This document shows, piece after piece, positions 196 through 22,293 of a stretch of DNA of 64,000 nucleotides (positions within the stretch are counted from its first letter, which is position 1; every line of letters begins with the position of its first letter). The notes beneath the pieces were generated by a model that did no database searches, was not told the origin of the DNA, and worked only from the letters and a program-made list of their open reading frames with translations. A program made the translations under genes and the position numbers. The DNA lies in assembly GCF_988242995.1 (NCBI RefSeq), contig NZ_OZ547043.1; one strand, 5' to 3'.

Positions 196-261
196 TTCTG
201 AAACTCCTAATCATCGGTGTGTTTCAGTATACACAAAAAAAGAAATACAAAAAGCCTTGAC

Positions 262-294
262 GTGTGTTTCATGCGCTCATAACATGAAACACAC
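262..294. promoter_or_regulatory. Perfect inverted repeat (gtgtgtttcatg N9 catgaaacacac) overlapping a TTGACG-N17-TAACAT-like promoter; candidate operator
   Basis: Read directly from sequence; lies between the divergent RHH gene and the rightward small-gene/primase operon. Confidence 0.45.
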
Positions 295-575
295 CGAAAG
301 GATTGTTGAAATACAAAGAGCAACGCCCCGCAGTGCTGGGAACACATACGGGGCGTCTAACCAACAACGTAAACTAGGAGCCGTTATGGTTGCTGTAAAT
401 CATATACCACACCTTGTACACACACAAACGGCCTTTGTGTGGCGTTTTCTGGCACTGAGTGCCGGAGAATCTCAAATCATCCACGTAACCGCCTGGACGG
501 AACGCGAAGCGCGTAGCCGTTGCCCGTCCGGTTGTGTTGCTGTATTCGCTGCAAAAATCCGCCAGGGAGTGAGTC

Positions 576-761
576 ATGCTTAAAACCTTCCGTGTATTTG
601 CCCGAGCTGTTAACCCAATAGGCCACACAATTGGTATCGCTCAGAATGTGAAGGCTGTTAATGTTCAGACGGCTATTGCTGCGGTGAGAAGCGAATCATC
701 AGAATATGGCTTATCACAAGTCATTATTTCAGCAGTGTATGAATTAAAAGAGGTGCATTAA
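576..761 (+). CDS. Hypothetical small protein (61 aa), first gene of primase operon
   Basis: ORF with GGGAG RBS; stop overlaps next start (TAATG). Confidence 0.4.
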   Translation: MLKTFRVFARAVNPIGHTIGIAQNVKAVNVQTAIAAVRSESSEYGLSQVIISAVYELKEVH

Positions 762-952
762 TGCAGGAAATCACATTACACGAAGCCGCTGAACGTGCGC
801 ACCAGACAGAAATTATTTGCCGCCTTCTTGAGGTATATCCGAACAAAATTACAGATGCTGATATATCCGCGCTGGCGAGCCTACTGGCGCGCCTTTCGGG
901 AAGTGTCGCTAGTTTCCTCATTGAGGAAGAAAGTAAGCTGGTGGGGGATTAA
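761..952 (+). CDS. Hypothetical small protein (63 aa)
   Basis: ORF with AAAGAGG RBS, translationally coupled to flanking genes. Confidence 0.45.
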   Translation: MQEITLHEAAERAHQTEIICRLLEVYPNKITDADISALASLLARLSGSVASFLIEEESKLVGD

Positions 953-1174
953 ATGAATACAGAACGGGAAGTCTTTTTTAAATTGTTAGCATGTGCAGAA
1001 AGTTCATTAACTTTAAATAATTCAGCAAAAGCAATATTAAATATGTGGCTTGATTGCATAAATGACAATGAAGATGCAAATATTGCTTATGGCCTGTTGT
1101 CACTTATTGATGAATCAGCAGAAAAACTCAATGACGCAATAAATAGTGCCCTGCTATCAAATAAGTCGAGTTAA
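953..1174 (+). CDS. Hypothetical small protein (73 aa)
   Basis: ORF starts immediately after previous stop; GGGGGA RBS. Confidence 0.45.
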   Translation: MNTEREVFFKLLACAESSLTLNNSAKAILNMWLDCINDNEDANIAYGLLSLIDESAEKLNDAINSALLSNKSS

Positions 1175-1191
1175 GTCGAGGAATAAATAAT

Positions 1192-1491
1192 ATGGAAATG
1201 AAAAATTCTGGCTTTATTGCCAGCGGCCCCGCTCGGCCTGAATTTATGAACGGCGATATTTACCGCGATAAATACGGCGGCACGGTAACGATTAAAGGCG
1301 TGGCAGAACGGCGCATCACTTACCGCCGTGAGGGGTATAGCTATGACTGCGTGATGCCTGTTTATCAGTTCCGGCGTGATTTTTCCCTGGTATATGCCGC
1401 ACCCCGCAGTAAGCCCATCAGCAGGGAAAAAGCGCGGGGAAACATCCAGAAAATGAAAAGCATGATTAACGCATTCAGGGGCAAAAAATGA
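1192..1491 (+). CDS. Hypothetical protein (99 aa)
   Basis: ORF with GAGGAA RBS; stop overlaps primase start (ATGA). Confidence 0.45.
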   Translation: MEMKNSGFIASGPARPEFMNGDIYRDKYGGTVTIKGVAERRITYRREGYSYDCVMPVYQFRRDFSLVYAAPRSKPISREKARGNIQKMKSMINAFRGKK

Positions 1492-3239
1492 AACTGGCAC
1501 CGAACTTAAAAAAACAGCCACGCGACAGACTGACAGAGGTAATCATCTTTGCAGGTAGTGATGCGTGGAGCCATGCGAAAGAGTGGCGGGAATGGGCGGG
1601 TAAACATATTGCCGCCGACGATGTGCCGCCTGTCGTGCTGGCTGATGAGCAACTGAAAAATATCACCGATTACCGGATCATTGATGAAGATCGTCAGTGT
1701 GTGCGTGTTTACCGCGCAGGACATATCACAGAGCACAGCATGACGCAGATTGTTACGTTACTGGCTGTGGCTGGAGTGAAGACCGTACACGAATACGCGG
1801 GGATTACTGACACCAGCCCAGTGGATTTATCCGAGCAGTTGCCGCGACTCAAAGAGGAATGCGAGCGTGGGGAAAGTCTGGTGCTTAATCTTCCGACGAA
1901 GCAAAAGGCGCAACTTTCACAGATGGCAGACAGTGAACGTGCACAACTACTTGCCGATCGCTTTGATGGTGTGTGTGTTCATGCAGAAAGTGAAATCGTC
2001 CACGTATGGCGCGGCGGGGTATGGTGTCCGGTCAGCACAATGGAGCTGAGCCGCGAAATGGTGGCGATCTATTCAGAGCACAGGGCCACGTTCAGCAAAC
2101 GTGTAATCAATAACGCCGTGGAAGCGTTAAAAGTTATTGCCGACCCCATGGGGGAGCCGTCCGGTGATTTGCTACCGTTCACTAATGGTGTGCTTAACCT
2201 GAAAACGGGGGAATTTTCTCCGCACTCGCCGGAGCACTGGAGCACCACGCACAATGGCATTGAGTACACGCCACCAGTAGCAGGGGAAAACATCCGCGAT
2301 AATGCGCCAAATTTCCATAAATGGCTTGAACATGCTGCAAGAAAAGACCCGCGCAAGATGATGCGTATATGTGCCGCGTTATACATGATTATGGCGAACC
2401 GCTACGACTGGCAGATGTTCATTGAGGCCACCGGAGACGGGGGAAGCGGTAAGAGTACATTTACCCATATTGCCACCCTGCTTGCTGGCAAACAGAACAC
2501 CGTAAGCGCGGAGATGACATCACTCGATGATGCAGGAGGGCGCGCGCAGGTTGTCGGGAGTCGTCTTATCGTCCTTGCCGATCAGCCGAAATATACGGGG
2601 GAAGGCACGGGCATCAAGAAAATCACGGGAGGCGATCCCGTTGAAATTAACCCGAAATATGAGAAGCGATTCACGACGATAATAAGGGCGGTGGTACTGG
2701 CAACCAATAACGACCCGATGATCTTTACCGAACGGGCCGGAGGTGTGTCACGCCGTCGGGTGATTTTCCGGTTCGACAACATTGTAAGGGAGGACGAAAA
2801 AGACAAGGAATTACCGGAAAAGATAGCGGCAGAAATCCCCGTAATTATCCGCCGCTTGCTGGCTAATTTTGCTGACCCTGAAAAGGCACGGGCTTTATTA
2901 CTGGAACAGCGTGACGGTGATGAAGCTCTGGCAATAAAGCAGCAAACGGATCCGGTTGTTGAGCTTTGCGCGGCGCTGGAGTTTCTGGAGGAAGCTCGTG
3001 GGCTAATGATGGGCGGTGGTGGTGACACCGTGAAGTACACGACCAGAAACAGCCTTTACCGTGTCTATATGGCCTTCATGGCATACACAGGAAAGGGGAA
3101 ATGTTTGAGCGTGAATGAGTTCGGAAAGGCTATGAGGTCAGCGGCGAAAGTTTACGGATATGAATATATTACGCGAAAAGTTAAGGGAGTCACGCAGACC
3201 AACGCAACGACTACTGATGATTGCGATGCGTTTTTATAA
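1488..3239 (+). CDS. Replication primase-helicase of satellite/PICI type (P4 alpha-like, D5-family P-loop NTPase)
   Basis: 583-aa ORF with Walker A motif GDGGSGKST in the central domain; followed directly by an iteron cluster, as in P4 alpha/crr. Confidence 0.7.
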   Translation: MKLAPNLKKQPRDRLTEVIIFAGSDAWSHAKEWREWAGKHIAADDVPPVVLADEQLKNITDYRIIDEDRQCVRVYRAGHITEHSMTQIVTLLAVAGVKTVHEYAGITDTSPVDLSEQLPRLKEECERGESLVLNLPTKQKAQLSQMADSERAQLLADRFDGVCVHAESEIVHVWRGGVWCPVSTMELSREMVAIYSEHRATFSKRVINNAVEALKVIADPMGEPSGDLLPFTNGVLNLKTGEFSPHSPEHWSTTHNGIEYTPPVAGENIRDNAPNFHKWLEHAARKDPRKMMRICAALYMIMANRYDWQMFIEATGDGGSGKSTFTHIATLLAGKQNTVSAEMTSLDDAGGRAQVVGSRLIVLADQPKYTGEGTGIKKITGGDPVEINPKYEKRFTTIIRAVVLATNNDPMIFTERAGGVSRRRVIFRFDNIVREDEKDKELPEKIAAEIPVIIRRLLANFADPEKARALLLEQRDGDEALAIKQQTDPVVELCAALEFLEEARGLMMGGGGDTVKYTTRNSLYRVYMAFMAYTGKGKCLSVNEFGKAMRSAAKVYGYEYITRKVKGVTQTNATTTDDCDAFL

Positions 3240-3249
3240 AAAATGGCAA

Positions 3250-3485
3250 TGGTTATCTACCTTGTCTACCTGACTGAAAGAAAATACTTTTATTTCAATG
3301 TATTAATGCAGGTAGATAACTATTTTTCACTGTCTACCTGTTATCTACCTTATCTACCCATTTTTGTAGACAGGTAAGGAGACGGGTAGAGATGAGGTAG
3401 ACAGCTATTTGGGGCTGTCTACCTCCCTGAAACCCGCGCCATTACTGGCCTGATAACTAATCAGGTAGACAAGGTAGACAAGGTG
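3250..3485. repeat. Iteron cluster (about 11 copies of 8-bp GGTAGACA / TGTCTACC motif in both orientations); putative replication origin
   Basis: Seen directly: cttgtctacc, caggtagataac, ctgtctacctgttatctaccttatctaccc, gtagacaggt, gaggtagacagc, ggctgtctacctcc, caggtagacaaggtagacaagg. Confidence 0.7.
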
Positions 3486-3528
3486 GTGGTGCACAAAAAA
3501 CTTTTTAAACGAGGGGGTAAAAATAAAA

Positions 3529-3786
3529 ATGCACACATCAGGAAAACTGAACAAACATATAAAGCCACATTACCGCGCCCTTGATATGGCTGAACACTGG
3601 CTAAGGGTGGCGATTAAGGCAATAGACCGCAACGCCGGGGAAGGATACGCGAAAGCACATCCCGAACTGATAAGCGCATTCATGACAACGGCGGCTGCAA
3701 ACTTTGCCACGCTGACCGAACGGGAGATTGCTGAAGCGGAGGAAGTGACAACAATCAATATTAAGTCCGGAGAGCAGGCAGCATGA
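3529..3786 (+). CDS. Hypothetical protein (85 aa)
   Basis: ORF with GGGGGT RBS; stop overlaps next start. Confidence 0.4.
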   Translation: MHTSGKLNKHIKPHYRALDMAEHWLRVAIKAIDRNAGEGYAKAHPELISAFMTTAAANFATLTEREIAEAEEVTTINIKSGEQAA

Positions 3787-4232
3787 CGGCGCAAATATCA
3801 GTTTACGGGCGGTTGGTGGACGACCCGCAGACAAAACAGACCAGCAAGGGCACCCCCATGACGCTGGCGCGTATGGCGGTATCACTGCCCTGCAGTCAGT
3901 CGGATGACGGTCTGGCGACGTTGTGGTTATCTGTCCTGGCGTTTGGCAGACAAGCCGACGCGCTGGCAAAGCATCACAAAGGCGAACTCCTGAGCGTGGC
4001 GGGTAACATGCAGATGAGCCAGTGGACTGGACAGAACGGCGAAACGCGGCAGGGCTGGCAGGTTATCGCAGACAGCGTAATCAGTGCGCGATCGGTGCGA
4101 CCGGGCGGCAAAAAAGGCCAACAGGGGCAGGCTACTGACGCACTGAACAGAGCAAAACAACAGGCAGATCAGCAAGGAAGCCAGCCACCAGAGGGAGATA
4201 ATGAGCAATGGGGAGATGATATCCCGTTTTAA
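3783..4232 (+). CDS. Divergent single-stranded DNA-binding (SSB-like, OB-fold) protein with acidic C-terminal DDIPF tip
   Basis: 149-aa ORF; OB-fold-like core, Gly/Gln-rich linker, and C-terminus ...EGDNEQWGDDIPF matching the canonical SSB partner-binding tail. Confidence 0.6.
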   Translation: MTAQISVYGRLVDDPQTKQTSKGTPMTLARMAVSLPCSQSDDGLATLWLSVLAFGRQADALAKHHKGELLSVAGNMQMSQWTGQNGETRQGWQVIADSVISARSVRPGGKKGQQGQATDALNRAKQQADQQGSQPPEGDNEQWGDDIPF

Positions 4233-4248
4233 ATATTGCCAATAAAAA

Positions 4249-4276
4249 AAGCCGGAAAAAATAAATTTTCCGGCAT
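4249..4276. terminator. Stem-loop gccggaaaa/ttttccggc after SSB-like gene; orientation ambiguous
   Basis: 9-bp inverted repeat with A-run upstream and T-run within/after the stem. Confidence 0.3.
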
Positions 4277-4448
4277 GCTACATAAATCCCGACCAAAGGG
4301 AGTGAAGATATTAACACTAATTGTCCGCACTGAAGTTGTCACCCCAAAACTTTATACAACATTGCACTCGGTTGCATGTGTTCGCATGACAAATATCGGT
4401 GATAGCATATATCCACAATTATTTTTAATGAATGCAAAGAGGATGCGT

Positions 4449-5489
4449 ATGGTTGATTTATATTCGCCTACTCAGCTTGTACAGGTAGTTAATGCTGTAG
4501 ATGTACAAAAACAACTAAATGCGTTATTTACCAGTTTGTTTTTTACTCGCTCGGTAATGTTTGAATCGCGCGATATTATTCTTGATACAATCGACGATCC
4601 AAATATCCCAATTGCAGCGTTTTGTTCTCCTATGGTGGGTAGTAAAGTTTCACGTGACGAAGGGTACGAATCAAAAACAATTCGTCCAGGCTATATGAAG
4701 CCGAAAAGCAGCATTGATCCAAATAAGTTAGCTGTGCGCCCTGCTGGTGTGTCACCTGAGCAATACAATGCTTTTGGGGCGCGTAATATTAAAGTTAAAC
4801 AGGCGATTGTAAATCAGGCTAAAGCTATTCGTGCACGTATTGAATGGCTTGCTGTTCAGGCAATCACAACGGGGAAAAATATCATTGAGGGCGATGGTAT
4901 TGAACGTTATGAGCTGGACTGGAATATAAAACCACAAAATATCATCACTCAGTCTGGCGGTACTGAGTGGTCAGGTAAGGATAAAGAAACTTTTGATCCA
5001 AATGATGATATTGAGAGCTACGCAGAATTTAGTGAGGGCGTCACTAATATCATCATTATGGGTGGTAATGTATGGAAGAAATACCGTTCATTCAGAGCGA
5101 TAAAAGAGGCTTTGGATACCCGTCGTGGTTCTAATTCCGAACTGGAAACGGCCCTTAAAGACCTTGGTGATTCGGTGAGTTTTAAAGGGTATATGGGCGA
5201 TGTTGCGATTGTTGTTTACAGCGGGCGTTATACCGACGAGGACGGAACAGAAAAACATTTCCTTGATCCTGATTTGATGGTGCTTGGCAATACGGCTCTT
5301 CAGGGGATTGTCGCCTATGGCGGTATTCAGGATCCGGAGCTAATCCGAATGGGGCTGACTAAAGCCGAACTTGCACCGAAAAACTATATTGTGCCTGGTG
5401 ATCCGGCTATTGAATATGTGCAGACACATTCAGCACCACAGCCAATACCGGCCCGCATCAATCGTTTTGTTACCGTTCGCATTGGCTAA
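4449..5489 (+). CDS. Major capsid protein, lambda gpE family (divergent paralog, about 50 percent identity to lambda E over the C-terminal half)
   Basis: Start chosen at MVDLYSPTQL with AAGAGGA RBS (the track ORF begins upstream at 4236). Shares blocks ITQSGGTEWS, LDTRRGSNSELETA, GDVAIVVYSG with lambda E. Confidence 0.8.
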   Translation: MVDLYSPTQLVQVVNAVDVQKQLNALFTSLFFTRSVMFESRDIILDTIDDPNIPIAAFCSPMVGSKVSRDEGYESKTIRPGYMKPKSSIDPNKLAVRPAGVSPEQYNAFGARNIKVKQAIVNQAKAIRARIEWLAVQAITTGKNIIEGDGIERYELDWNIKPQNIITQSGGTEWSGKDKETFDPNDDIESYAEFSEGVTNIIIMGGNVWKKYRSFRAIKEALDTRRGSNSELETALKDLGDSVSFKGYMGDVAIVVYSGRYTDEDGTEKHFLDPDLMVLGNTALQGIVAYGGIQDPELIRMGLTKAELAPKNYIVPGDPAIEYVQTHSAPQPIPARINRFVTVRIG

Positions 5490-5498
5490 GGGGGAGCA

Positions 5499-5840
5499 AT
5501 GGCTACTCATTACACTGAACTCATGGCTGGCACTGAAGCACTGGTGACTACGCTGGGGATATTTTCAGCTAATAAAGGGGTAATTCCTGCATTTACGCCA
5601 CTGATGCAGGAAGATGCAACAGGTGCACTGGTGGTATGGGATGGTTCGAGCGTAGGTAAAGCGGTTTATGTTTCCGCTGTACAAATCGACACCGCGAAAA
5701 AAACACAGGCTCAGGTCTATAAGACAGGTGTCTTAAATGTTGATGCTCTGAACTGGCCTGAGTCTGTTAAAGAACTGTCAGTAAAGGTTGCAGCGTTTGT
5801 TGGCTCAGGTATTTCTGTTCAGCCGCTGGCTCGTGTGTAA
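5499..5840 (+). CDS. Head decoration protein, lambda gpD family
   Basis: 113-aa ORF; TPLMQEDATGALVVWDGSS...AAFVGSGISVQ aligns with lambda D TPLMLDTSSRKLVAWDGTT...TAFAGTAISIV. Confidence 0.7.
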   Translation: MATHYTELMAGTEALVTTLGIFSANKGVIPAFTPLMQEDATGALVVWDGSSVGKAVYVSAVQIDTAKKTQAQVYKTGVLNVDALNWPESVKELSVKVAAFVGSGISVQPLARV

Positions 5841-5851
5841 AGGGGGATACA

Positions 5852-6235
5852 ATGCAGAATGATTACAATGACCTTAAGCCAATTGCCGAAATGATGTACC
5901 CGAATCCAGCTGTAGAGGAATTAAAAGCTATCGCTGACAAAATGTGTTTAAGCGAGCGCCTTGTTGATATGAATCAGGTGATGGAAATTACAACCCTGAG
6001 TCGTCGTACACTGCTAAACCTTGAGGCTAGTGGAGAGTTCCCGGAGCGTGTGCAGGTTACGGAAGGGCGTAAGGCCTGGTATTTAAGTGAAGTGATCGAC
6101 TGGATAAATAATATTCCTCGCGCTTCTGAATATTGCCGCGTACCTGTCCCAAAAAAGCCAGATGCGGCGCTATGCCTCAAGATTGAGCGTGTACGCCGCA
6201 ATGCACGGGATGGTCGCTATAAGCTGATTGGTTGA
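5852..6235 (+). CDS. AlpA/excisionase-like HTH regulator
   Basis: 127-aa ORF; central segment MNQVMEITTLSRRTLLNLEASGEFPERVQVTEGRKAWYLSEVIDWINN resembles AlpA-family phage regulators. Confidence 0.55.
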   Translation: MQNDYNDLKPIAEMMYPNPAVEELKAIADKMCLSERLVDMNQVMEITTLSRRTLLNLEASGEFPERVQVTEGRKAWYLSEVIDWINNIPRASEYCRVPVPKKPDAALCLKIERVRRNARDGRYKLIG

Positions 6236-6397
6236 TGAAATTAGGGCCCGCTCTGGCTGGCGGGTCCTTTCCGGTGATCCAGAACGTTACGGGGCGTCAG
6301 GCGCGCAGATTCTTGCTATTTATGACAATTTTCTGCGATTTGCCGTTTCCGTTCTTCTTCCTCGTAACTTAGTGTTTTTACTAGAAATACCCTCTAA

Positions 6398-6448
6398 AAA
6401 GAAAGGAAATGACAGGTGCTGAAAACAGGCTTTTGGGTCTCCGTCATT
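6398..6448. terminator. Stem-loop (aaaggaaatgac ... gtcatttccttt) followed by T-rich tract
   Basis: 12-bp inverted repeat read directly, after the alpA-like gene. Confidence 0.4.
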
Positions 6449-6687
6449 TCCTTTCTCATTTTTATCTAAAAGTAAGCATCGAGGCCACCCCAAATGCTTA
6501 TAGAGGTTATTGTGTCACTATGCGTACTGTTCAGGATTTAAAGTAGCAAGACATCTAGTTGCTTGCAGTTTTGGCGAATGATGTGAGGTTCTCTATAACA
6601 GATAATGTAACAAGTTACTGATATATTCTGTTATGGTTGACTTTAAATTTTGTTGCTCCTTCAATGAATTATTGAGGGGTAAAAATT

Positions 6688-6713
6688 AGGCGTGATAAGA
6701 ATCGATCACGCCT
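6688..6713 (-). terminator. Rho-independent terminator for the 438-aa gene
   Basis: aggcgtgat/atcacgcct 9-bp stem immediately 3' of the minus-strand stop, followed on that strand by AATTTTTA. Confidence 0.45.
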
Positions 6714-6718
6714 ATTGT

Positions 6719-8035
6719 TTATCTTGAAGAAATTTTAGGCAGGCTTTTTAAAAATAAATCTTTATTTCTACTTGCATCAGTTAAAAGTGTTAGGAATATT
6801 TTATCTGTAGGAGTGCATGTGCTCTTGTTTAACAGTAATTCACCAAGTTTCTGTAATCGAGAGAATTGCCCATCCTCTTGGATTCTGTGACGAAGTGTAC
6901 TATCATTTTTAATAACATCAACAAATGCAGAAACCATGTTAATATCAAAGTGTTCAAACATTTCCAATATTAAAGGTGCAGCCCCATTTGAATAAAAATT
7001 CTTCCTTCCATACTGATAGCTGAAACCACGATGGCCAACATAAGTTTTTGTAATGGCTGAAACAAATTCAACAATATTATCTTCAGGGACGAAACTCGAG
7101 AATGGTAATAATTGGGTTACGATTTTTTCCTCTTCTGACCAATTATCTAAAGACTCGGTGAGTTTATTAATGAGAGGCTCAATAATAACTTTTCGGGATG
7201 CAGGGCTAATATACATCAGTCCATCTACCAATAGTATGAATTGTTGTGCCTTCTCTATCTTATTGTTGTTTCCTGAAACTAAATACTTGTCAAATTGTTG
7301 GCCGACTTTACGTCGGTCGTCTTTTGAAAGTAATGTCCATAAAATAGGTGCGCAAAATTCAATGTTGTTTCTGAGTTCACTTGATATATTGGATGAGCAG
7401 TATGTGCCAAAAAAACGAGAGGATAATTCACTGATATAAATTGCAGGTAGATCTGAAAAGGCTTGCTTAACTGCCAGACTATTTTTATTAAATGTTGCCG
7501 AATCCATTTCTGAAAGATATGTAGTTATATCTATGATGGCTGGTGGAAACTCTTTAGAAAGAACGTATTTATTACAATCATTAATCAGGTTCACTACTTT
7601 GATTAAATCAGGGTCGCTACTTTGTGGATGTCCACCAAATAGATTCCTGGTTTCTCTAGCTTGTTGTAATAGTTTCTGACCTTCTCGATCGATAACTCCT
7701 ATTTTAAATGCTCCATCTATTAAATCAAAGTCGCTCACATAATCCTGAAAATCTTCATACGTTTTAATTTCTTTTTTTTGTTTACACTCTTTGTTGAATA
7801 GATCTAGGCTACGATGAATTATCTTTTGACGTAAATCATCAACTACAGCATTCCAGTAAGCAGTGATGGCACTTCTATAACCTTTTACAGGAAGAACTCT
7901 TATTGCTTCTGAAATATATGGGCAGTCAACTACATCATGCCTCACAGTTGAGAGCGCAGTTTGTAACAATGTAACTTCTGTAGAGTCTAGTGGAGTTGGC
8001 TGCACTAAATGAGAACTTATCTCTGTACCCTTCAT
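6719..8035 (-). CDS. 438-aa hypothetical protein with N-terminal HEPN-like Rx5H motif (R130-N-L-F-G-G-H136); candidate abortive-infection/defence protein
   Basis: Long ORF on the opposite strand in a visibly AT-rich 2-kb block with its own upstream region and terminator; no similarity to phage structural or housekeeping proteins that I recognise. Confidence 0.5.
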   Translation of the reverse strand: MKGTEISSHLVQPTPLDSTEVTLLQTALSTVRHDVVDCPYISEAIRVLPVKGYRSAITAYWNAVVDDLRQKIIHRSLDLFNKECKQKKEIKTYEDFQDYVSDFDLIDGAFKIGVIDREGQKLLQQARETRNLFGGHPQSSDPDLIKVVNLINDCNKYVLSKEFPPAIIDITTYLSEMDSATFNKNSLAVKQAFSDLPAIYISELSSRFFGTYCSSNISSELRNNIEFCAPILWTLLSKDDRRKVGQQFDKYLVSGNNNKIEKAQQFILLVDGLMYISPASRKVIIEPLINKLTESLDNWSEEEKIVTQLLPFSSFVPEDNIVEFVSAITKTYVGHRGFSYQYGRKNFYSNGAAPLILEMFEHFDINMVSAFVDVIKNDSTLRHRIQEDGQFSRLQKLGELLLNKSTCTPTDKIFLTLLTDASRNKDLFLKSLPKISSR

Positions 8036-8391
8036 TTCAGGATTTTCCTATTCTTTTCCATTTTTCTACTCTATTGAATTTGAAAAAGATATCAAGTTCG
8101 TTCTTGCCAGTTTTAAGTGGAAAATTTGATGTTACCTTATTGAGATAAGGCAGTTCTCTATAACCTATTGTTATTAATTATTTTTATTTTTTTCCAATTC
8201 AGATGTTTAGGGCTAAGAAGTTAAGTGAGAGTTCACAGCAAAACTGCTTCTAGTTCCTCACCGAGGAGCAAAAGGTTAAGACAGCGTACTTTGTATTGCA
8301 CAATGTATTGCAGAACCTTCTTTCGAAAGCTACAACAATCAATTTTATATTGAAAATTCAATCATATCCTTTCGATATTGACTCATATAAC

Positions 8392-9179
8392 CCAAGCATG
8401 AGGTGAATCCGCAGATGACCCTGCGTCGCCTGCCGGATGAAGATCCGCAGAATCTGGCGGACCCGGCTTACCGCCGCCGTCGCATCATTATGCAGAACAT
8501 GCGTGACGAAGAGCTGGCCATTGCCCAGGTCGAAGAGATGCAGGCAGTTTCTGCCGTGCTTAAGGGCAAATACACCATGACCGGTGAAGCTTTCGATCCG
8601 GTTGAGGTGGATATGGGCCGCAGTGCGGCCAACAACATCACGCAGTCCGGCGGCACGGAGTGGAGCAAGCGTGACAAGTCCACGTATGACCCGACCGACG
8701 ATATCGAAGCCTACGCGCTGAACGCCAGCGGAGTGGTGAATATCATCGTGTTTGATCCGAAAGGCTGGGTGCTGTTCCGTTCCTTCAAAGCCGTCAAGGA
8801 GAAGCTGGATACTCGTCGCGGCTCTCATTCCGAGCTGGAGACAGCGGTGAAAGACCTGGGCAAAGCGGTGTCCTACAAGGGGATGTATGGCGATGTGGCC
8901 ATCGTCGTGTATTCCGGACAGTACGTGGAAAACGGCGTCAAAAAGAACTTCCTGCCGGACAACACGATGGTGCTGGGGAACACTCAGGCACGCGGTCTGC
9001 GCACCTATGGCTGCATTCAGGATGCGGACGCACAGCGCGAAGGCATTAACGCCTCTGCCCGTTACCCGAAAAACTGGGTGACCACCGGCGATCCGGCGCG
9101 TGAGTTCACCATGATTCAGTCAGCACCGCTGATGCTGCTGGCTGATCCTGATGAGTTCGTGTCTGTACAACTGGCGTAA
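8392..9179 (+). pseudogene. E: Major capsid gene E, 5'-truncated (about the first 96 codons missing)
   Basis: Translation from ...PKHEVNPQMTLRRLPDEDPQNLADPAYRRRR... to ...DPDEFVSVQLA is near-identical to lambda gpE residues about 97-341; upstream sequence is unrelated AT-rich DNA. Confidence 0.85.
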
Positions 9180-9181
9180 TC

Positions 9182-9207
9182 ATGGCCCTTCGGGGCCATT
9201 TTCTCTC
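9182..9207 (+). terminator. Stem-loop ggcccttcggggcc + T-run between E and FI
   Basis: Read directly from sequence. Confidence 0.4.
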
Positions 9208-9220
9208 TGTGGAGGAGTTC

Positions 9221-9619
9221 ATGACGAAAGATGAGCTGATTGCCCGTCTTCAGGAGCTGGGTGAGCAACTGAACCGCGATGTCAGTTTGACGGGAACGAA
9301 AGAAGAACTGGCGCTTCGTGTGGCAGAGCTGGAAGAAGAGCTTGATGACACGGATGAAACTGCCGGTCAGGACACCCCTCTCAGCCGGGAAAATGTGCTG
9401 ACCGGGCATGAAAATGAGGTGGTATCAGCGCAGCCGGATACCGTGATTCAGGATACGGCTGAACTGGTCACGGTCGTGGCACTGGTGACGCTGCATACTG
9501 ATGCGCTTCACGCCACGCGGGATAAACCTGTGGCATTTGTGCTGCCGGGAACGGCGTTTCGTGTCTCTGCCGGTGTGGCAGCCGAAATGACAGAACGTGG
9601 CCTGGCCAGAATGCAATAA
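9221..9619 (+). CDS. FI: DNA packaging protein FI
   Basis: MTKDELIARLQELGEQLNRDVSLTGTKEELALRVAELEEELDDTDE... near-identical to lambda gpFI; GGAGGAG RBS. Confidence 0.9.
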   Translation: MTKDELIARLQELGEQLNRDVSLTGTKEELALRVAELEEELDDTDETAGQDTPLSRENVLTGHENEVVSAQPDTVIQDTAELVTVVALVTLHTDALHATRDKPVAFVLPGTAFRVSAGVAAEMTERGLARMQ

Positions 9620-9630
9620 CGGGAGGCGCT

Positions 9631-9984
9631 GTGGCTGATTTCGATAACCTGTTCGATGCTGCCATTGCCCGCGCTGATGAAACGATACGCGGGTACATGG
9701 GAACGTCAGCCACCCTGACATCCGGTGAGCAGTCCGGTGCTGTGATACGTGGTGTTTTTGATGACCCTGAAAATATCAGCTATGCCGGACAGGGCGTGCG
9801 CGTTGAAGGCTCCAGCCCGTCCCTGTTTGTCCGGACTGATGAGGTGCGGCAGCTGCGGCGTGGAGACACGCTGACCATCGGTGAGGAAAACTTCTGGATA
9901 GACCGGGTTTCGCCGGATGATGGCGGAAGCTGTCATCTCTGGCTTGGGCGTGGCGTGCCGCCTGCCGTTAACCGTCGCCGCTGA
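9631..9984 (+). CDS. FII: Head-tail joining protein FII
   Basis: 117-aa ORF matching lambda gpFII (MADFDNLFDAAIARADETIRGYMG...). Confidence 0.9.
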   Translation: MADFDNLFDAAIARADETIRGYMGTSATLTSGEQSGAVIRGVFDDPENISYAGQGVRVEGSSPSLFVRTDEVRQLRRGDTLTIGEENFWIDRVSPDDGGSCHLWLGRGVPPAVNRRR

Positions 9985-9995
9985 AGGGGGGATGT

Positions 9996-10574
9996 ATGGC
10001 CATAAAAGGTCTTGAGCAGGCCATTGAAAACCTCAGCCGTATCAGCAGAACGGCGGTGCCTGGTGCCGCCGCAATGGCCATTAACCGCGTTGCTTCATCC
10101 GCGATATCGCAGTCGGCGTCACAGGTTGCCCGTGAGACAAAGGTACGCCGGAAACTGGTAAAGGAAAGGGCCAGGCTGAAAAGGGCCACGGTCAAAAATC
10201 CGCAGGCCAGAATCAGGGTTAACCGGGGGGATTTGCCCGTAATCAGGCTGGGTAACGCGCGGGTTGTCCTTTCGCGCCGCAGGCGTCGTAAAAAGGGGCA
10301 GCGTTCATCCCTGAAAGGTGGCGGCAGCGTGCTTGTGGTGGGTAACCGTCGTATTCCCGGCGCGTTTATTCAGCAACTGAAAAATGGCCGGTGGCATGTC
10401 ATGCAGCGTGTGGCCGGGAAAAACCGTTACCCCATTGATGTGGTGAAAATCCCGATGGCGGTGCCGCTGACCACGGCGTTTAAACAAAATATTGAGCGGA
10501 TACGGCGTGAACGTCTTCCGAAAGAGCTGGGCTATGCGCTGCAGCATCAACTGAGGATGGTAATAAAGCGATGA
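9996..10574 (+). CDS. Z: Minor tail protein Z
   Basis: 192-aa ORF matching lambda gpZ. Confidence 0.9.
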   Translation: MAIKGLEQAIENLSRISRTAVPGAAAMAINRVASSAISQSASQVARETKVRRKLVKERARLKRATVKNPQARIRVNRGDLPVIRLGNARVVLSRRRRRKKGQRSSLKGGGSVLVVGNRRIPGAFIQQLKNGRWHVMQRVAGKNRYPIDVVKIPMAVPLTTAFKQNIERIRRERLPKELGYALQHQLRMVIKR

Positions 10575-10661
10575 AACATACTGAACTCCGTGCAGCCGTA
10601 CTGGATGCACTGGAGAAGCATGACACCGGGGCGACGTTTTTTGATGGTCGCCCCGCTGTTT

Positions 10662-11372
10662 GTGCACAGAAAACCCCCAGCTAGGCTGGGGGTTCCGGAA
10701 AGCTTTCAGCTTTGAGCCAGTTATTAAAACCCCTTTTGATTTGTTAAAACACCTTGCGGTCTGGCAACTGCAAGTGTCAAACAAGAAATCAAAAGGGGGT
10801 CCCAATGGGGAACGAAAAGAGCTTAGCGCACACCCGATGGAACTGTAAATATCACATAGTTTTTGCGCCAAAATACCGAAGACAGGTGTTCTACAGAGAG
10901 AAGCGTAGAGCAATAGGCAGTATTTTGAGAAAGCTGTGTGAGTGGAAAAGCGTACGGATTCTGGAAGCTGAATGCTGTGCAGATCATATCCATATGCTTG
11001 TGGAGATCCCGCCCAAAATGAGCGTATCCGGGTTTATGGGATATCTGAAAGGGAAAAGCAGTCTGATGCTTTACGAGCAGTTTGGTGATTTGAAATTCAA
11101 ATACAGGAACAGGGAGTTCTGGTGCAGAGGGTACTACGTCGATACAGTGGGTAAGAACACGGCGAAGATACAGGATTACATAAAGCACCAGCTTGAAGAG
11201 GATAAAATGGGAGAGCAGTTATCGATTCCCTATCCGGGCAGCCCGTTTACGGGCCGTAAGTAACGAAGTTGGATGCAAATGTCAGATCGTGTGCGCCTGT
11301 TAGGGCGCGGCTGGTAAGAGAGCCTTATAGGCGCATTTGAAAAACCTCCGGCTATGCCGGAGGATATTTATT
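10662..11372 (+). mobile_element. IS200 (IS200/IS605 family), about 711 bp, with terminal hairpins
   Basis: Contains the Y1 transposase gene; left-end hairpin cccccagctaggctggggg and right-end hairpin ctccggctatgccggag; boundaries inferred from interruption of lambda U. Confidence 0.8.
10805..11263 (+). CDS. tnpA: IS200 transposase TnpA (Y1/HUH)
   Basis: MGNEKSLAHTRWNCKYHIVFAPKYRRQVFY...HIHMLVEIPPK... matches IS200 TnpA (152 aa). Confidence 0.9.
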   Translation: MGNEKSLAHTRWNCKYHIVFAPKYRRQVFYREKRRAIGSILRKLCEWKSVRILEAECCADHIHMLVEIPPKMSVSGFMGYLKGKSSLMLYEQFGDLKFKYRNREFWCRGYYVDTVGKNTAKIQDYIKHQLEEDKMGEQLSIPYPGSPFTGRK

Positions 11373-11684
11373 TTGATGAGGCGGATTTTCCGGCAGTTGC
11401 CGTTTATCTCACCGGCGCTGAATACACGGGCGAAGAGCTGGACAGCGATACCTGGCAGGCGGAGCTGCATATCGAAGTTTTCCTGCCTGCTCAGGTGCCG
11501 GATTCAGAGCTGGATGCGTGGATGGAGTCCCGGATTTATCCGGTGATGAGCGATATCCCGGCACTGTCAGATTTGATCACCAGTATGGTGGCCAGCGGCT
11601 ATGACTACCGGCGCGACGATGATGCGGGCCTGTGGAGTTCAGCCGATCTGACTTATGTCATTACCTATGAAATGTGAGGACGCT

Positions 11685-12425
11685 ATGCCTGTACCAAATC
11701 CTACAATGCCGGTGAAAGGTGCCGGGACCACACTGTGGGTTTATAAGGGGAACGGTGACCCTTATGCGAACCCGCTTTCAGACGTGGACTGGTCGCGTCT
11801 GGCAAAAGTTAAAGACCTGACGCCCGGCGAACTGACCGCTGAGTCCTATGACGACAGCTATCTCGATGATGAAGATGCGGACTGGACTGCGACCGGGCAG
11901 GGGCAGAAATCAGCCGGAGATACCAGCTTCACGCTGGCGTGGATGCCCGGAGAGCAGGGGCAGCAGGCGCTGCTGGCGTGGTTTAATGAAGGTGATACCC
12001 GTGCCTATAAAATCCGCTTCCCGAACGGCACGGTCGATGTGTTCCGTGGCTGGGTCAGCAGTATCGGTAAAGCGGTGACGGCGAAGGAAGTGATCACCCG
12101 CACGGTGAAGGTCACCAATGTGGGACGCCCGTCGATGGCAGAAGATCGCAGCACGGTCACAGCGGCAACCGGCATGACCGTGACGCCTGCCAGCACCTCG
12201 GTGGTGAAAGGGCAGAGCACGACGCTGACCGTGGCATTCCAGCCGGAAGGCGCAACCGACAAGAGCTTCCGTGCGGTGTCTGCGGATAAAACAAAAGCCA
12301 CCGTGTCGGTCAGTGGTATGACCATCACCGTGAAAGGTGTTGCTGCAGGCAAGGTCAACATTCCGGTCGTATCCGGTAATGGTGAACTTGCTGCGGTTGC
12401 AGAAATCAACGTTACCGCCAGTTAA
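11685..12425 (+). CDS. V: Major tail protein V
   Basis: [22 protein letters not shown]... matches lambda gpV; C-terminal Ig-like domain present. Confidence 0.9.
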
Positions 12426-12440
12426 TCCGGAGAGTCAGCG

Positions 12441-12863
12441 ATGTTCCTGAAAACCGAATCATTTGAACATAACGGTGTGACCGTCACGCTTTCTGAACTG
12501 TCAGCCCTGCAGCGTATTGAGCATCTCGCCCTGATGAAACGACAGGCAGAACAGGCGGAGTCAGACAGCAACCGGAAGTTTACTGTGGAAGACGCCATCA
12601 GAACCGGCGCTTTTGTGGTGGCGATGTCCCTGTGGCATAACCATCCGCAGAAGACAAAGCTGCCTTCCATGAATGAAGCCGTTAAACAGATTGAGCAGGA
12701 AGTGCTTACCACCTGGCCCACGGAGGCAATTTCTCATGCTGAAAACGTGGTGTACCGGCTGTCTGGTATGTATGAGTTTGTGGTGAATAATGCCCCTGAA
12801 CAGACAGAGGACGCCGGGCCCGCAGAGCCTGTTTCTGCGGGAAAGTGTTCGACGGTGAGCTGA
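12441..12863 (+). CDS. G: Tail assembly chaperone G
   Basis: 140-aa ORF matching lambda gpG; slippery heptamer GGGAAAG at 12839-12845 near its 3' end. Confidence 0.85.
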   Translation: MFLKTESFEHNGVTVTLSELSALQRIEHLALMKRQAEQAESDSNRKFTVEDAIRTGAFVVAMSLWHNHPQKTKLPSMNEAVKQIEQEVLTTWPTEAISHAENVVYRLSGMYEFVVNNAPEQTEDAGPAEPVSAGKCSTVS

Positions 12864-13279
12864 GTTTTGCCCTGAAACTGGCGCGTGAGATGGGGCGACC
12901 CGACTGGCGTGCCATGCTTGCCGGGATGTCATCCACGGAGTATGCCGACTGGCACCGCTTTTACAGTACCCATTATTTTCATGATGTTCTGCTGGATATG
13001 CACTTTTCCGGGCTGACGTACACCGTGCTCAGCCTGTTTTTCAGCGATCCGGATATGCATCCGCTGGATTTCAGTCTGCTGAACCGGCGCGAGGCTGACG
13101 AAGAGCCTGAAGATGATGTGCTGATGCAGAAAGCGGCAGGGCTTGCCGGAGGTGTCCGCTTTGGCCCGGACGGGAATGAAGTTATCCCCGCTTCCCCGGA
13201 TGTGGCGGACATGACGGAGGATGACGTAATGCTGATGACAGTATCAGAAGGGATCGCAGGAGGAGTCCGGTATGGCTGA
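12845..13279 (+). CDS. T: Tail assembly protein T, expressed as G-T fusion by -1 programmed frameshift
   Basis: T reading frame has no own RBS/ATG and opens at the G slippery site; matches lambda gpT. Confidence 0.8.
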   Translation: MFDGELSFALKLAREMGRPDWRAMLAGMSSTEYADWHRFYSTHYFHDVLLDMHFSGLTYTVLSLFFSDPDMHPLDFSLLNRREADEEPEDDVLMQKAAGLAGGVRFGPDGNEVIPASPDVADMTEDDVMLMTVSEGIAGGVRYG

Positions 13280-15833
13280 ACCGGTAGGCGATCTGGTCGT
13301 TGATTTGAGTCTGGATGCGGCCAGATTTGACGAGCAGATGGCCAGAGTCAGGCGTCATTTTTCCGGTACGGAAAGTGATGCGAAAAAAACAGCGGCAGTC
13401 GTTGAACAGTCGCTGAGCCGACAGGCGCTGGCTGCACAGAAAGCGGGGATTTCCGTCGGGCAGTATAAAGCCGCCATGCGTATGCTGCCTGCACAGTTCA
13501 CCGACGTGGCCACGCAGCTTGCAGGCGGGCAAAGTCCGTGGCTGATCCTGCTGCAACAGGGGGGGCAGGTGAAGGACTCCTTCGGCGGGATGATCCCCAT
13601 GTTCAGGGGGCTTGCCGGTGCGATCACCCTGCCGATGGTGGGGGCCACCTCGCTGGCGGTGGCGACCGGTGCGCTGGCGTATGCCTGGTATCAGGGCAAC
13701 TCAACCCTGTCCGATTTCAACAAAACGCTGGTCCTTTCCGGCAATCAGGCGGGACTGACGGCAGATCGTATGCTGGTCCTGTCCAGAGCCGGGCAGGCGG
13801 CAGGGCTGACGTTTAACCAGACCAGCGAGTCACTCAGCGCACTGGTTAAGGCGGGGGTAAGCGGTGAGGCTCAGATTGCGTCCATCAGCCAGAGTGTGGC
13901 GCGTTTCTCCTCTGCATCCGGCGTGGAGGTGGACAAGGTCGCTGAAGCCTTCGGGAAGCTGACCACAGACCCGACGTCTGGGCTGACGGCGATGGCACGC
14001 CAGTTCCATAACGTGACGGCGGAGCAGATTGCGTATGTTGCTCAGTTGCAGCGTTCCGGCGATGAAGCCGGGGCATTGCAGGCGGCGAACGAGGCCGCAA
14101 CGAAAGGGTTTGATGACCAGACCCGCCGCCTGAAAGAGAACATGGGCACGCTGGAGACCTGGGCAGACAGGACTGCGCGGGCATTCAAATCCATGTGGGA
14201 TGCGGTGCTGGATATTGGTCGTCCTGATACCGCGCAGGAGATGCTGATTAAGGCAGAGGCTGCGTTTAAGAAAGCAGACGACATCTGGAATCTGCGCAAG
14301 GATGATTATTTTGTTAACGATGAAGCGCGGGCGCGTTACTGGGATGATCGTGAAAAGGCCCGTCTTGCGCTTGAAGCCGCCCGAAAGAAGGCTGAGCAGC
14401 AGACTCAACAGGACAAAAATGCGCAGCAGCAGAGCGATACCGAAGCGTCACGGCTGAAATATACCGAAGAGGCGCAGAAGGCTTACGAACGGCTGCAGAC
14501 GCCGCTGGAGAAATATACCGCCCGTCAGGAAGAACTGAACAAGGCACTGAAAGACGGGAAAATCCTGCAGGCGGATTACAACACGCTGATGGCGGCGGCG
14601 AAAAAGGATTATGAAGCGACGCTGAAAAAGCCGAAACAGTCCGGCGTGAAGGTGTCTGCGGGCGATCGTCAGGAAGACAGTGCTCATGCTGCCCTGCTGA
14701 CGCTTCAGGCAGAACTCCGGACGCTGGAGAAGCATGCCGGAGCAAATGAGAAAATCAGCCAGCAGCGCCGGGATTTGTGGAAGGCGGAGAGTCAGTTCGC
14801 GGTACTGGAGGAGGCGGCGCAACGTCGCCAGCTGTCTGCACAGGAGAAATCCCTGCTGGCGCATAAAGATGAGACGCTGGAGTACAAACGCCAGCTGGCT
14901 GCACTTGGCGACAAGGTTACGTATCAGGAGCGCCTGAACGCGCTGGCGCAGCAGGCGGATAAATTCGCACAGCAGCAACGGGCAAAACGGGCCGCCATTG
15001 ATGCGAAAAGCCGGGGGCTGACTGACCGGCAGGCAGAACGGGAAGCCACGGAACAGCGCCTGAAGGAACAGTATGGCGATAATCCGCTGGCGCTGAATAA
15101 CGTCATGTCAGAGCAGAAAAAGACCTGGGCGGCTGAAGACCAGCTTCGCGGGAACTGGATGGCAGGCCTGAAGTCCGGCTGGAGTGAGTGGGAAGAGAGC
15201 GCCACGGACAGTATGTCGCAGGTAAAAAGTGCAGCCACGCAGACCTTTGATGGTATTGCACAGAATATGGCGGCGATGCTGACCGGCAGTGAGCAGAACT
15301 GGCGCAGCTTCACCCGTTCCGTGCTGTCCATGATGACAGAAATTCTGCTTAAGCAGGCAATGGTGGGGATTGTCGGGAGTATCGGCAGCGCCATTGGCGG
15401 GGCTGTTGGTGGCGGCGCATCCGCGTCAGGCGGTACAGCCATTCAGGCCGCTGCGGCGAAATTCCATTTTGCAACCGGAGGATTCACAGGAACCGGCGGC
15501 AAATATGAGCCAGCGGGGATTGTTCACCGTGGTGAATTTGTCTTCACGAAGGAGGCAACCAGCCGGATTGGCGTGGGGAATCTCTACCGGCTGATGCGCG
15601 GCTATGCCACCGGTGGTTATGTCGGTACACCGGGCAGTCTGGCTGACAGCCGGTCGCAGGCGTCCGGGACGTTTGAGCAGAATAACCATGTGGTGATTAA
15701 CAACGACGGCACGAACGGGCAGATAGGTCCGGCTGCTCTGAAGGCGGTGTATGACATGGCCCGCAAGGGTGCCCGTGATGAAATTCAGACACAGATGCGT
15801 GATGGTGGCCTGTTCTCCGGAGGTGGACGATGA
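13272..15833 (+). CDS. H: Tail tape measure protein H
   Basis: 853-aa ORF, same length as lambda gpH; coiled-coil-rich. Confidence 0.9.
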   Translation: MAEPVGDLVVDLSLDAARFDEQMARVRRHFSGTESDAKKTAAVVEQSLSRQALAAQKAGISVGQYKAAMRMLPAQFTDVATQLAGGQSPWLILLQQGGQVKDSFGGMIPMFRGLAGAITLPMVGATSLAVATGALAYAWYQGNSTLSDFNKTLVLSGNQAGLTADRMLVLSRAGQAAGLTFNQTSESLSALVKAGVSGEAQIASISQSVARFSSASGVEVDKVAEAFGKLTTDPTSGLTAMARQFHNVTAEQIAYVAQLQRSGDEAGALQAANEAATKGFDDQTRRLKENMGTLETWADRTARAFKSMWDAVLDIGRPDTAQEMLIKAEAAFKKADDIWNLRKDDYFVNDEARARYWDDREKARLALEAARKKAEQQTQQDKNAQQQSDTEASRLKYTEEAQKAYERLQTPLEKYTARQEELNKALKDGKILQADYNTLMAAAKKDYEATLKKPKQSGVKVSAGDRQEDSAHAALLTLQAELRTLEKHAGANEKISQQRRDLWKAESQFAVLEEAAQRRQLSAQEKSLLAHKDETLEYKRQLAALGDKVTYQERLNALAQQADKFAQQQRAKRAAIDAKSRGLTDRQAEREATEQRLKEQYGDNPLALNNVMSEQKKTWAAEDQLRGNWMAGLKSGWSEWEESATDSMSQVKSAATQTFDGIAQNMAAMLTGSEQNWRSFTRSVLSMMTEILLKQAMVGIVGSIGSAIGGAVGGGASASGGTAIQAAAAKFHFATGGFTGTGGKYEPAGIVHRGEFVFTKEATSRIGVGNLYRLMRGYATGGYVGTPGSLADSRSQASGTFEQNNHVVINNDGTNGQIGPAALKAVYDMARKGARDEIQTQMRDGGLFSGGGR

Positions 15834-16159
15834 AAACCTTCCGCTGGAAAGTGAAACCCGGTATGGATGTGGCTTCGGCCCCTTCTGTAAGAAAGGTGCG
15901 CTTTGGTGATGGCTATTCCCAGCGAGCGCCTGCCGGGCTGAATGCCAACCTGAAAACGTACAGCGTGACGCTTTCTGTCCCCCGTGAGGAGGCCACGGTA
16001 CTGGAGTCGTTTCTGGCTGAGCACGGGGGCTGGAAGGCCTTTCTGTGGACGCCGCCTTATGGCTACCGGCAGATAAAGGTGACCTGCGCAAAATGGTCGT
16101 CGCGGGTCAGTATGTTGCGTGTTGAGTTCAGCGCAGAGTTTGAACAGGTGGTGAACTGA
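15830..16159 (+). CDS. M: Minor tail protein M
   Basis: 109-aa ORF matching lambda gpM; ATGA overlap with H. Confidence 0.9.
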   Translation: MKTFRWKVKPGMDVASAPSVRKVRFGDGYSQRAPAGLNANLKTYSVTLSVPREEATVLESFLAEHGGWKAFLWTPPYGYRQIKVTCAKWSSRVSMLRVEFSAEFEQVVN

Positions 16160-16857
16160 TGCAGGATATCCGACAGGAAACACTGAATGAATGCACCCGT
16201 GCGGAGCAGTCGGCCAGCGTGGTGCTCTGGGAAATCGACCTGACAGAGGTCGGTGGAGAACGTTATTTTTTCTGTAATGAGCAGAACGAAAAAGGTGAGC
16301 CGGTCACCTGGCAGGGGCGACAGTATCAGCCGTATCCCATTCAGGGGAGCGGTTTTGAACTGAATGGCAAAGGCACCAGTACGCGCCCCACGCTGACGGT
16401 TTCTAACCTGTACGGTATGGTCACCGGGATGGCGGAAGATCTGCAGAGTCTGGTCGGCGGAACGGTGGTCAGGCGTAAGGTTTATGCCCGTTTTCTGGAT
16501 GCGGTGAACTTCGTCAACGGAAACAGAGACGCCGATCCGGAGCAGGAGGTGATCAGCCGCTGGCGCATTGAGCAGTGCAGCGAACTGAGCGCGGTGAGTG
16601 CCTCTTTTGTACTGTCCACGCCGACGGAAACGGACGGCGCTGTTTTTCCGGGACGTATCATGCTGGCCAACACCTGCACCTGGACCTATCGCGGCGATGA
16701 GTGCGGTTATCACGGTCCGGCGGTCGCGGATGAATATGACCAGCCAACGTCCGATATCACGAAGGATAAATGCAGCAAATGCCTGAGCGGTTGTAAGTTC
16801 CGCAATAACGTCGGCAACTTTGGCGGCTTCCTTTCCATTAACAAACTTTCGCAGTAA
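16159..16857 (+). CDS. L: Minor tail protein L
   Basis: 232-aa ORF matching lambda gpL. Confidence 0.9.
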   Translation: MQDIRQETLNECTRAEQSASVVLWEIDLTEVGGERYFFCNEQNEKGEPVTWQGRQYQPYPIQGSGFELNGKGTSTRPTLTVSNLYGMVTGMAEDLQSLVGGTVVRRKVYARFLDAVNFVNGNRDADPEQEVISRWRIEQCSELSAVSASFVLSTPTETDGAVFPGRIMLANTCTWTYRGDECGYHGPAVADEYDQPTSDITKDKCSKCLSGCKFRNNVGNFGGFLSINKLSQ

Positions 16858-16861
16858 TCCC

Positions 16862-18144: not shown

Positions 18145-18204
18145 TGAAAAACGTTTTATGTGAAACCGCCTCCGGGCGGTTTTATCGTTTATGGAGCATG
18201 ACGA

Positions 18205-21600: not shown

Positions 21601-21618
21601 ATTTTATAACCCAGATAC

Positions 21619-21644
21619 GGGCACCAGAAATGGTGCCTTTTTTA
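21619..21644 (+). terminator. Rho-independent terminator after J (ggcacc...ggtgcc + TTTTTT)
   Basis: Read directly from sequence. Confidence 0.5.
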
Positions 21645-21667
21645 TTGCAGAAAAGCGAGAGGTAATT

Positions 21668-22267: not shown

Positions 22268-22293
22268 TTAGCCAGGTAACACAGTGTTATGAC

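Follow-up and report, generated by a model that had tools for sequence, protein, structure and literature searches.

The attR junction of a probable helper-embedded PICI within the capsid gene E of a lambdoid prophage

Helper-embedded PICIs (HE-PICIs) were founded as a group on Eco567.11capE (11capE) of Escherichia coli NRG857c (Tommasini, Mageeney & Williams 2023, NAR Genom Bioinform, PMC10111431). This 11-kb satellite interrupts a lambdoid prophage's capsid gene, the insertion site being designated E:Phage_cap_E:80, and possesses a 10-bp identity block shared by attL and attR as well as a capsid gene of its own (PMC10111431). The same study counted 201 instances at E:Phage_cap_E:80 and 491 HE-PICIs over 14 late-gene sites, and it described a doubled motif, tgTGTATTGCantgTGTATTGCa, that is unique to the HE-PICI attP, where one copy precedes the att centre by 81 ± 2 bp and another follows it by 132 ± 2 bp (PMC10111431). 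When NRG857c was treated with mitomycin C, the composite of prophage and satellite excised and replicated, and a later, precise excision of 11capE produced the predicted attP and attB, while no plaque-forming particles or virions were recovered for 11capE or for its helper (PMC10111431). The rebuilding of a split gene by such timed excision was termed 'regulated gene integrity' (PMC10111431). The layout of the GN-PICIs comprises four zones, namely the integration, Bro/dynamic, replication, and late zones.

Here, we analysed a stretch of 64,000 nucleotides (the window) in which the E gene of a lambdoid prophage is cut. We consider it very likely that window positions 8389-8398 are the attR of an HE-PICI of the group E:Phage_cap_E:80, with Eco567.11capE as type element, the left half of the element being read from satellites that are 99.5-99.9% identical to it. 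Like 11capE, the window element is placed at E codon 80, with the block AACCCAAGCA and the doubled arm motif at the same spacing, and both share the order SSB, capsid, decoration, AlpA-like gene, and cos-like site, where the DNA identity reaches 97% (window 3576-6463, the late zone, against 11capE of NRG857c). The encoded proteins are close to invariant, with 127 of 127 residues shared for the AlpA-like protein, 345 of 346 for the capsid, 112 of 113 for the decoration protein, and 142 of 149 for the SSB; the integrases of four relatives match the 11capE Int at 408-410 of 411 positions, while the window's own int is off-window. The two elements differ in the location of their helpers (at icd for 11capE, at a DLP12/argU-type locus with an appY-ompT flank for the window), in their cargo (HEPN + DUF262 in 11capE, a 438-aa unknown protein in the window), and in their primase alleles (74-78%), and the U gene of the window helper carries IS200C. 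The kind of element, its site, its att structure, its arm motif, and its cos-like segment were all already published in 2023 (PMC10111431).

The window element also shares with EcCICFT073 and the Gram-negative PICIs (Fillol-Salom et al. 2018, 2019) a size class of about 10-20 kb, a backbone of int, alpA, and primase, the frequent presence of a capsid homologue, and cos-type packaging by a lambdoid helper in the absence of its own terS. However, classical PICIs occupy chromosomal sites and contact their helper in trans only, whereas the window element sits inside its helper. Moreover, EcCICFT073 has a divergent cosB and its Rpp retargets the helper TerS, whereas the cosB-like region in the window aligns with the cosB of both the helper and lambda. 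The cf-PICIs (Alqurainy et al. 2023) likewise encode capsid-family proteins of their own, but their genes cover the whole head and packaging apparatus (capsid, portal, protease, terminase subunit, and connectors). The window element possesses E-like and D-like genes only, no portal, protease, or terminase gene being found in the element, either in the window or in its complete relatives, and it was thus not assigned to the cf-PICIs.

Comparison of the window with a phage collection placed the onset of lambda E homology at position 8391, which corresponds to nt 6372 of J02459; lambda E occupies nt 6135-7160 of that sequence, and nt 6372 is the first base of codon 80. In a direct comparison with lambda, 771 of the 789 nt at 8391-9179 were identical, and the 60 nt to the left of 8391 matched at 17 positions, which is chance level. 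The abrupt start that a sequence-only reading of this DNA had placed at about 8392 was thus confirmed to within a nucleotide, and the recombination junction that it had proposed is real, but the cut lies at codon 80 and not at about codon 97, a difference of 17 codons. The 3' part of the helper capsid gene E (8391-9179, plus strand) comprises codons 80-341 and the stop, with its frame intact by comparison with lambda; it encodes residues 80-341, of which 258 of 262 are shared with lambda E and 261 of 262 with the E protein of phage PhiR49_1.

Just upstream, an in-frame TAA at 8388-8390 closes the reading frame of the E fragment. The ORF from the GTG at 8403, which is codon V84, to 9179 does exist and spans 258 aa, as the sequence-only reading had noted, but its idea that an N-truncated capsid fragment may be expressed from there found no support. 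A promoter scan around the junction returned six promoter-like matches with 6.8 expected in shuffles; as the matches do not exceed the shuffles, the scan speaks neither for nor against expression from this GTG. The published model has no need of an N-truncated capsid product because excision rebuilds the whole E gene.

The junction displays the architecture of an attachment site. The attR identity block AACCCAAGCA (8389-8398, plus strand) recurs as the same 10 bp at the attL of GF131, APEC E14033, and NRG857c, while the attL of EC931 and EC-10 and the attB of PhiR49_1 carry AGCCGAAGCA in its place. Alignment of the ends gave an attR, in the window and its relatives, of the form ...GACTCATAT AACCCAAGCA TGA(G/A)GTGAAT..., and an attL, in the relatives, of the form ...GGATATGTCA A(A/G)CC(C/G)AAGCA CTTAGCATGG..., and the uninterrupted E of PhiR49_1 reads ...GGATATGTCA AGCCGAAGCA TGAGGTGAAT... 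Since EC931 and EC-10 retain the phage allele AGCCGAAGCA at attL, the obligatory crossover would be placed within the terminal AAGCA. At the other end of the element, which is off-window here, the relatives and NRG857c carry the attL block together with E codons 1-81. In silico joining of attL and attR restored an E gene of 341 codons in each of the four relatives so treated, and while the satellite is inserted, the predicted product of the 5' fragment consists of E residues 1-81 followed by ten foreign residues.

In support of this assignment, the doubled arm motif ctTTGTATTGCacaaTGTATTGCa, which is diagnostic of the HE-PICI attP, was identified at 8290-8312 on the plus strand. Its core (TGTATTGC, doubled) occurs once in the 64 kb, at 8292-8311, with zero occurrences expected in shuffles, and the centre of the identity block follows 81 nt after the end of the motif, which is the published spacing. 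It is found at an equal offset in EC931, EC-10, GF131, APEC E14033, and NRG857c, and in the relatives a second copy follows the centre of the attL block at a distance of 132 nt, for instance at locus positions 10195-10214 of EC931.

The left half of the element was read from other genomes. The whole stretch at 7000-10000 is contained in 11 complete E. coli genomes, the closest full-length matches having 98.2-98.3% identity, and in complete relatives the insertion in E measures 10.4-11.3 kb. The satellite portion within the window (1-8398, plus strand) is 99.5-99.9% identical to the complete elements of APEC E14033 and EC931, which span 11,276-11,333 bp. Window position 1 corresponds to position 16001 of the APEC E14033 locus, where the attL core is found at about 13306, and is thus about 2.7 kb inside the element, which leaves attL, int, and the first alpA-like gene outside the window. 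The complete relatives possess, in order, a tyrosine integrase, a small HTH/AlpA-like gene, variable genes, an Icd-like gene, DUF4222, primase, SSB, capsid, decoration, an AlpA-like HTH gene, and cargo. Of the four zones, the window includes the replication and late ones, and the integration zone is seen in the relatives.

The annotated head-gene context to the left of the element was read in five loci (EC931, EC-10, GF131, APEC E14033, and NRG857c), each of which displays Nu1-A-W-B-C-D followed by the 5' part of E, then the element from int to capsid, decoration, alpA, cos, and cargo, and then the 3' part of E with FI-FII-Z-U and onward. Read leftward from the element, the first 81 codons of E are followed by D, C/Nu3, B, W, A, and Nu1. 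In the relatives, the 5' part of E is annotated as a 246-bp 'major capsid protein, missing C-terminus' adjoining the tyrosine integrase, and the 3' part as 'major capsid protein, missing N-terminus', after which come FI, FII, Z, U, and V. We further screened 5,426 complete E. coli genomes with an attL probe of 401 nt (the E 5' end and the integrase-proximal arm), counted as present when at least 80% was covered. The attL junction, with the E 5' part directly left of the integrase, was found in 172 of them; in lower-ranked genomes, taken as an evenly spaced sample and with the weakest match excepted, the probe match ended at position 126, exactly the core.

These findings bear on whether E was cut by a deletion. 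According to this explanation, a deletion or illegitimate recombination removed Nu1-D and the first third of E, and fused the tail remnant to an unrelated AT-rich island. Within the window, the E fragment is indeed preceded by no head genes, and the GC content falls to 0.36-0.41 just upstream of it. DLP12, which occupies the same locus in K-12, is a well-known cryptic prophage deleted for head and tail genes. The composite and DLP12 share the neighbourhood essD-rrrD-rzpD-nohD ... appY-ompT-envY-nfrA and belong to the lambdoid family, but in the composite the morphogenesis genes are present, the head genes being read in the relatives, and E is interrupted by an insertion. The nucleotide-precise junction recurs with at least four different cargo sets, 172 genomes have the E 5' fragment joined to the integrase arm, with head genes preceding it in the five inspected loci, the att identity block and arm motifs keep a fixed spacing, and the DNA from window position 1 up to the junction matches a known satellite without a break, all of which argues against a deletion and leaves it, in our judgement, very improbable. 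The sequence-only reading, which had regarded the tail module as an amputated remnant fused to accessory DNA, was right that the upstream head genes are absent from the window, but it could see neither them nor the integrase because the window starts inside the satellite. In the five related genomes inspected, E is split, but the head genes are displaced about 11 kb leftward and not lost. The class of amputated cryptic prophages was thus set aside in view of the att structure at the junction and of the Nu1-D genes and E 5' part kept in the five relatives, the window's own left side being off-window.

The preferred reading, an HE-PICI integrated at E codon 80, is also consistent with the genes that precede the junction. 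The plus strand carries the primase, SSB, capsid, decoration, and AlpA-like genes, co-oriented with E-FI-...-J, and the cargo ORF alone is on the minus strand. An ORF in the dynamic zone (68-583, plus strand) has an Icd-like (host cell division inhibitor) domain at residues 123-166 (NCBIfam NF033153, E=7e-17), and a DUF4222 ORF (1192-1491, plus strand), identified from the annotation of the relatives, is located 5' of the primase. In the relatives some of the satellite ORFs are pseudogenised, DUF4222 being frameshifted and the Icd-like gene partial in EC931 and GF131. The satellite DNA primase of the replication zone (1488-3239, plus strand) matches phrog_864 (E=3e-161) and is annotated in the DNA primase family in the relatives. 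Its nucleotide identity to the 11capE primase (NRG857c locus 13229-15049) is 74-78% over the aligning segments, against 97% for the neighbouring SSB-capsid-AlpA-cos block, which indicates that the replication zone may be exchanged as a module among the capE HE-PICIs. In the satellite DNA covered by an Rfam scan of window 1-12000, no P4 CI/isrK-type immunity RNA scored at or above the gathering threshold.

The late zone begins with a single-stranded DNA-binding protein (3783-4232, plus strand; phrog_44, E=2e-37). It is followed by the satellite major capsid protein (4449-5489, plus strand; 346 aa, phrog_29), a paralogue of E with 42% aa identity to the phage protein over 338 aa (E=1e-85), which bears out the full-length, divergent E paralogue that had been noted about 3 kb upstream of the junction. 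The satellite head decoration protein (5499-5840, plus strand; 113 aa, phrog_49) is a paralogue of D with 38% aa identity to the phage protein (E=6e-18), and an AlpA-like HTH regulator/excisionase family protein (5852-6235, plus strand) matches phrog_2790, 'excisionase and transcriptional regulator' (E=1e-49). The capsid genes of other PICIs are dispensable for transfer, according to evidence cited in PMC10111431.

The proximity of two E-family genes, 3 kb apart, could in principle mislead an assembler or permit homologous recombination, so that the junction would be an assembly artefact or a chimeric join of the satellite capsid gene and the prophage E. We give this explanation practically no credence. 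The junction is located 2.9 kb downstream of the satellite capsid gene, past the cos-like site and the cargo, and in the blastn comparison with NRG857c the sole match between a satellite capsid gene and a helper E fragment is 136 bp at 73%. Furthermore, the arrangement is identical in 11 independent complete genomes with the same cargo, and the attL junction is found in 172. At the codons equivalent to the att site, the satellite capsid gene reads AAGCCGAAAAGCAGC as compared with AAGCCGAAGCATGAA in lambda E, and it thus differs from the att site. Homologous recombination between the capsid paralogues was rejected because the junction is outside the paralogue and the DNA similarity is negligible.

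Downstream of the AlpA-like gene, the HE-PICI of the window carries a cos-like packaging site (6262-6470, plus strand) comprising a cosN variant, GGGCGTCAGGCG, and cosB-like repeats. By blastn, it has 83% identity over 206 bp to the helper cos region, taken from the APEC E14033 helper, where it immediately precedes nohD/Nu1, and lambda cosN and cosB can be aligned with it along their full extent; for 11capE, an equivalent cos-like match of 258 bp was described (PMC10111431). A direct search with lambda cosN, GGGCGGCGACCT, allowing up to two mismatches, gave no match inside the satellite, so that blastn against the nohD-upstream region was needed, the satellite cosN being a variant. The satellite cosN GGGCGTCAGGCG is unlike the lambda GGGCGGCGACCT and nearer to the APEC E14033 helper variant GGGCGGAAGGCG.

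Between the cos-like site and the junction, the AT-rich DNA that had been regarded as an accessory island turned out to be the variable cargo slot of the satellite (6467-8348), with a GC content of 0.36-0.41; similarity to other capE elements breaks off at about 6457-6466 and returns at 8349-8372. The slot holds a cargo ORF of 438 aa (6719-8035, minus strand), predicted to be all-helical, with a bidirectional terminator-like hairpin (6687-6714) downstream of it. The protein matches phrog_27609 (function unknown), and searches against Pfam, NCBIfam, and PDB sequences returned no match; PADLOC gave a single marginal signal, PD-T7-3 (E=0.023), and a single-sequence AlphaFold prediction, with a pLDDT of 44, yielded an unusable model. 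Elsewhere, the slot contains a 311-aa hypothetical protein (EC-10), three small ORFs and DUF3892 (GF131), or HEPN and DUF262 (NRG857c). It is conceivable, albeit rather unlikely in our estimation, that the capE HE-PICIs use the slot as an exchange hotspot for genes of phage defence or competition and that the 438-aa protein could be an undescribed defence protein. If so, a defence protein would be carried by a satellite living inside its own helper.

To the right of the junction, the helper genes FI (9221-9619), FII (9631-9984), and Z (9996-10574) follow on the plus strand, as judged from the ORFs and the annotation of the relatives, and the rest of the tail module, consisting of V, G, T, H, M, L, K, I, J, lom, and the side tail fibre, occupies 11685-24722 on the same strand and by the same evidence. 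The ORFs and the annotation of relatives with 97-99% identity also uphold the lambda gene order that had been described downstream through J. Between Z and V, the tail terminator gene U is split into a 5' part (10571-10661) and a 3' part (11371-11677), both on the plus strand and collinear with the intact U of APEC E14033. The intervening 709 bp (10662-11370, plus strand, ± 2 owing to a T run) are an IS200C, annotated as such in strain MEW, with a tnpA ORF at about 10806-11263, and U is interrupted after nt 91. The Rfam family STnc490 (IS200 5'UTR RNA) was detected at 10672-10795 with 146 bits, as the sole Rfam match in window 1-12000. Only two complete genomes, MEW and BEC1-S17-ESBL-09 (the latter with 91% identity), have the IS-in-U junction in common with the window, and in strain MEW it is found in a Qin-locus prophage with an intact E, pointing either to a favoured IS200 target within U or to the spread of this U allele by recombination between prophages.

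U is essential for lambda tail assembly. Owing to the IS200C in U, the helper in the window's genome is probably tail-defective unless U is given in trans, for a reason other than that of the sequence-only reading, and the composite would probably not be self-sufficient for particles. The interruption of this essential gene after nt 91 raises the possibility that the HE-PICI, together with its helper, is decaying and no longer mobilisable, the split E being by now effectively a permanent pseudogene. This notion would also agree with the pseudogenised satellite ORFs in EC931 and GF131 and with the failure to recover particles even from 11capE, the type element. However, all visible satellite ORFs and the E 3' frame are intact, the att block is conserved, as are the arm motif and the cos-like site, and U could come in trans from another lambdoid prophage. 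A query segment from E to Z occurs in up to five copies per complete E. coli genome, with a median of one. Taken together, we regard decay as a serious possibility, though one with clearly less than an even chance; as it concerns the present state of the element and not its identity, it is compatible with the HE-PICI explanation.

The chromosomal position of the helper was approached from its flanks. The right flank, appY-ompT-envY-ybcH-nfrA, fits the DLP12/argU locus, and the left flank in the relatives, quuD-essD-rrrD-rzpD-nohD, is the DLP12 neighbourhood. A tRNA scan of the 64-kb window revealed no tRNA gene, and argU was not seen; nevertheless, judged from these flanks, argU appears a reasonable position for the helper. 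In EC931, the right flank (locus 38521-43001) displays a P-loop NTPase and then thrS-infC, and not appY-ompT, which implies a rearrangement or another chromosomal position for an otherwise near-identical composite. Farther to the right, an island is located between nfrB and cusS (window 36384-45313, minus strand), with a GC content of up to 0.63. It encodes an ISAs1-family transposase (36384-37520), a PAAR/YD-repeat Rhs protein of 1554 aa (38071-42735), and VgrG (43376-45313); in K-12, nfrB directly adjoins cusS.

From these comparisons, a course of events can be proposed for the HE-PICI in the window. The satellite tyrosine integrase would have inserted the element of about 11 kb, in the orientation of the late operon, at codon 80 of E in a prophage of the DLP12 family. 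E is thereby split, its first 81 codons and the head genes most likely lying to the left of the satellite, off-window, and its codons 80-341 at 8391-9179. Upon induction, the composite is expected to excise and replicate, as described for 11capE (PMC10111431), and late transcription and helper replication would pass passively through the satellite. Later, a precise excision of the satellite would rebuild E, gpE being impossible for the helper before that point, with the expected products attP ...CATATAACCCAAGCACTTAGCATGG... and attB ...GTCAA(A/G)CC(C/G)AAGCATGA(A/G)GTGAAT... The excised satellite may then be packaged by the terminase, heads, and tails of the helper via its own cos-like site.

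A gene that is split by an element and rebuilt by its timed excision is also found with skin in sigK of Bacillus subtilis and phi10403S in comK of Listeria, although the likeness is one of functional analogy only. In the HE-PICI, the split gene belongs to the helper phage, and the timing is proposed to serve the satellite and not the cell. The boundary of the element lies within a late gene of the prophage, at codon 80 of the cognate of lambda E, and the locus is a nested pair of mobile elements. RefSeq labels both halves of E as 'incomplete' pseudogenes, and a naive reading would be that of a defective prophage. The window adds no new mechanism, but it is a good example of a recently described arrangement, in which the satellite sits in a late gene of its own helper, so that the capsid protein of the helper would be blocked until the satellite leaves.
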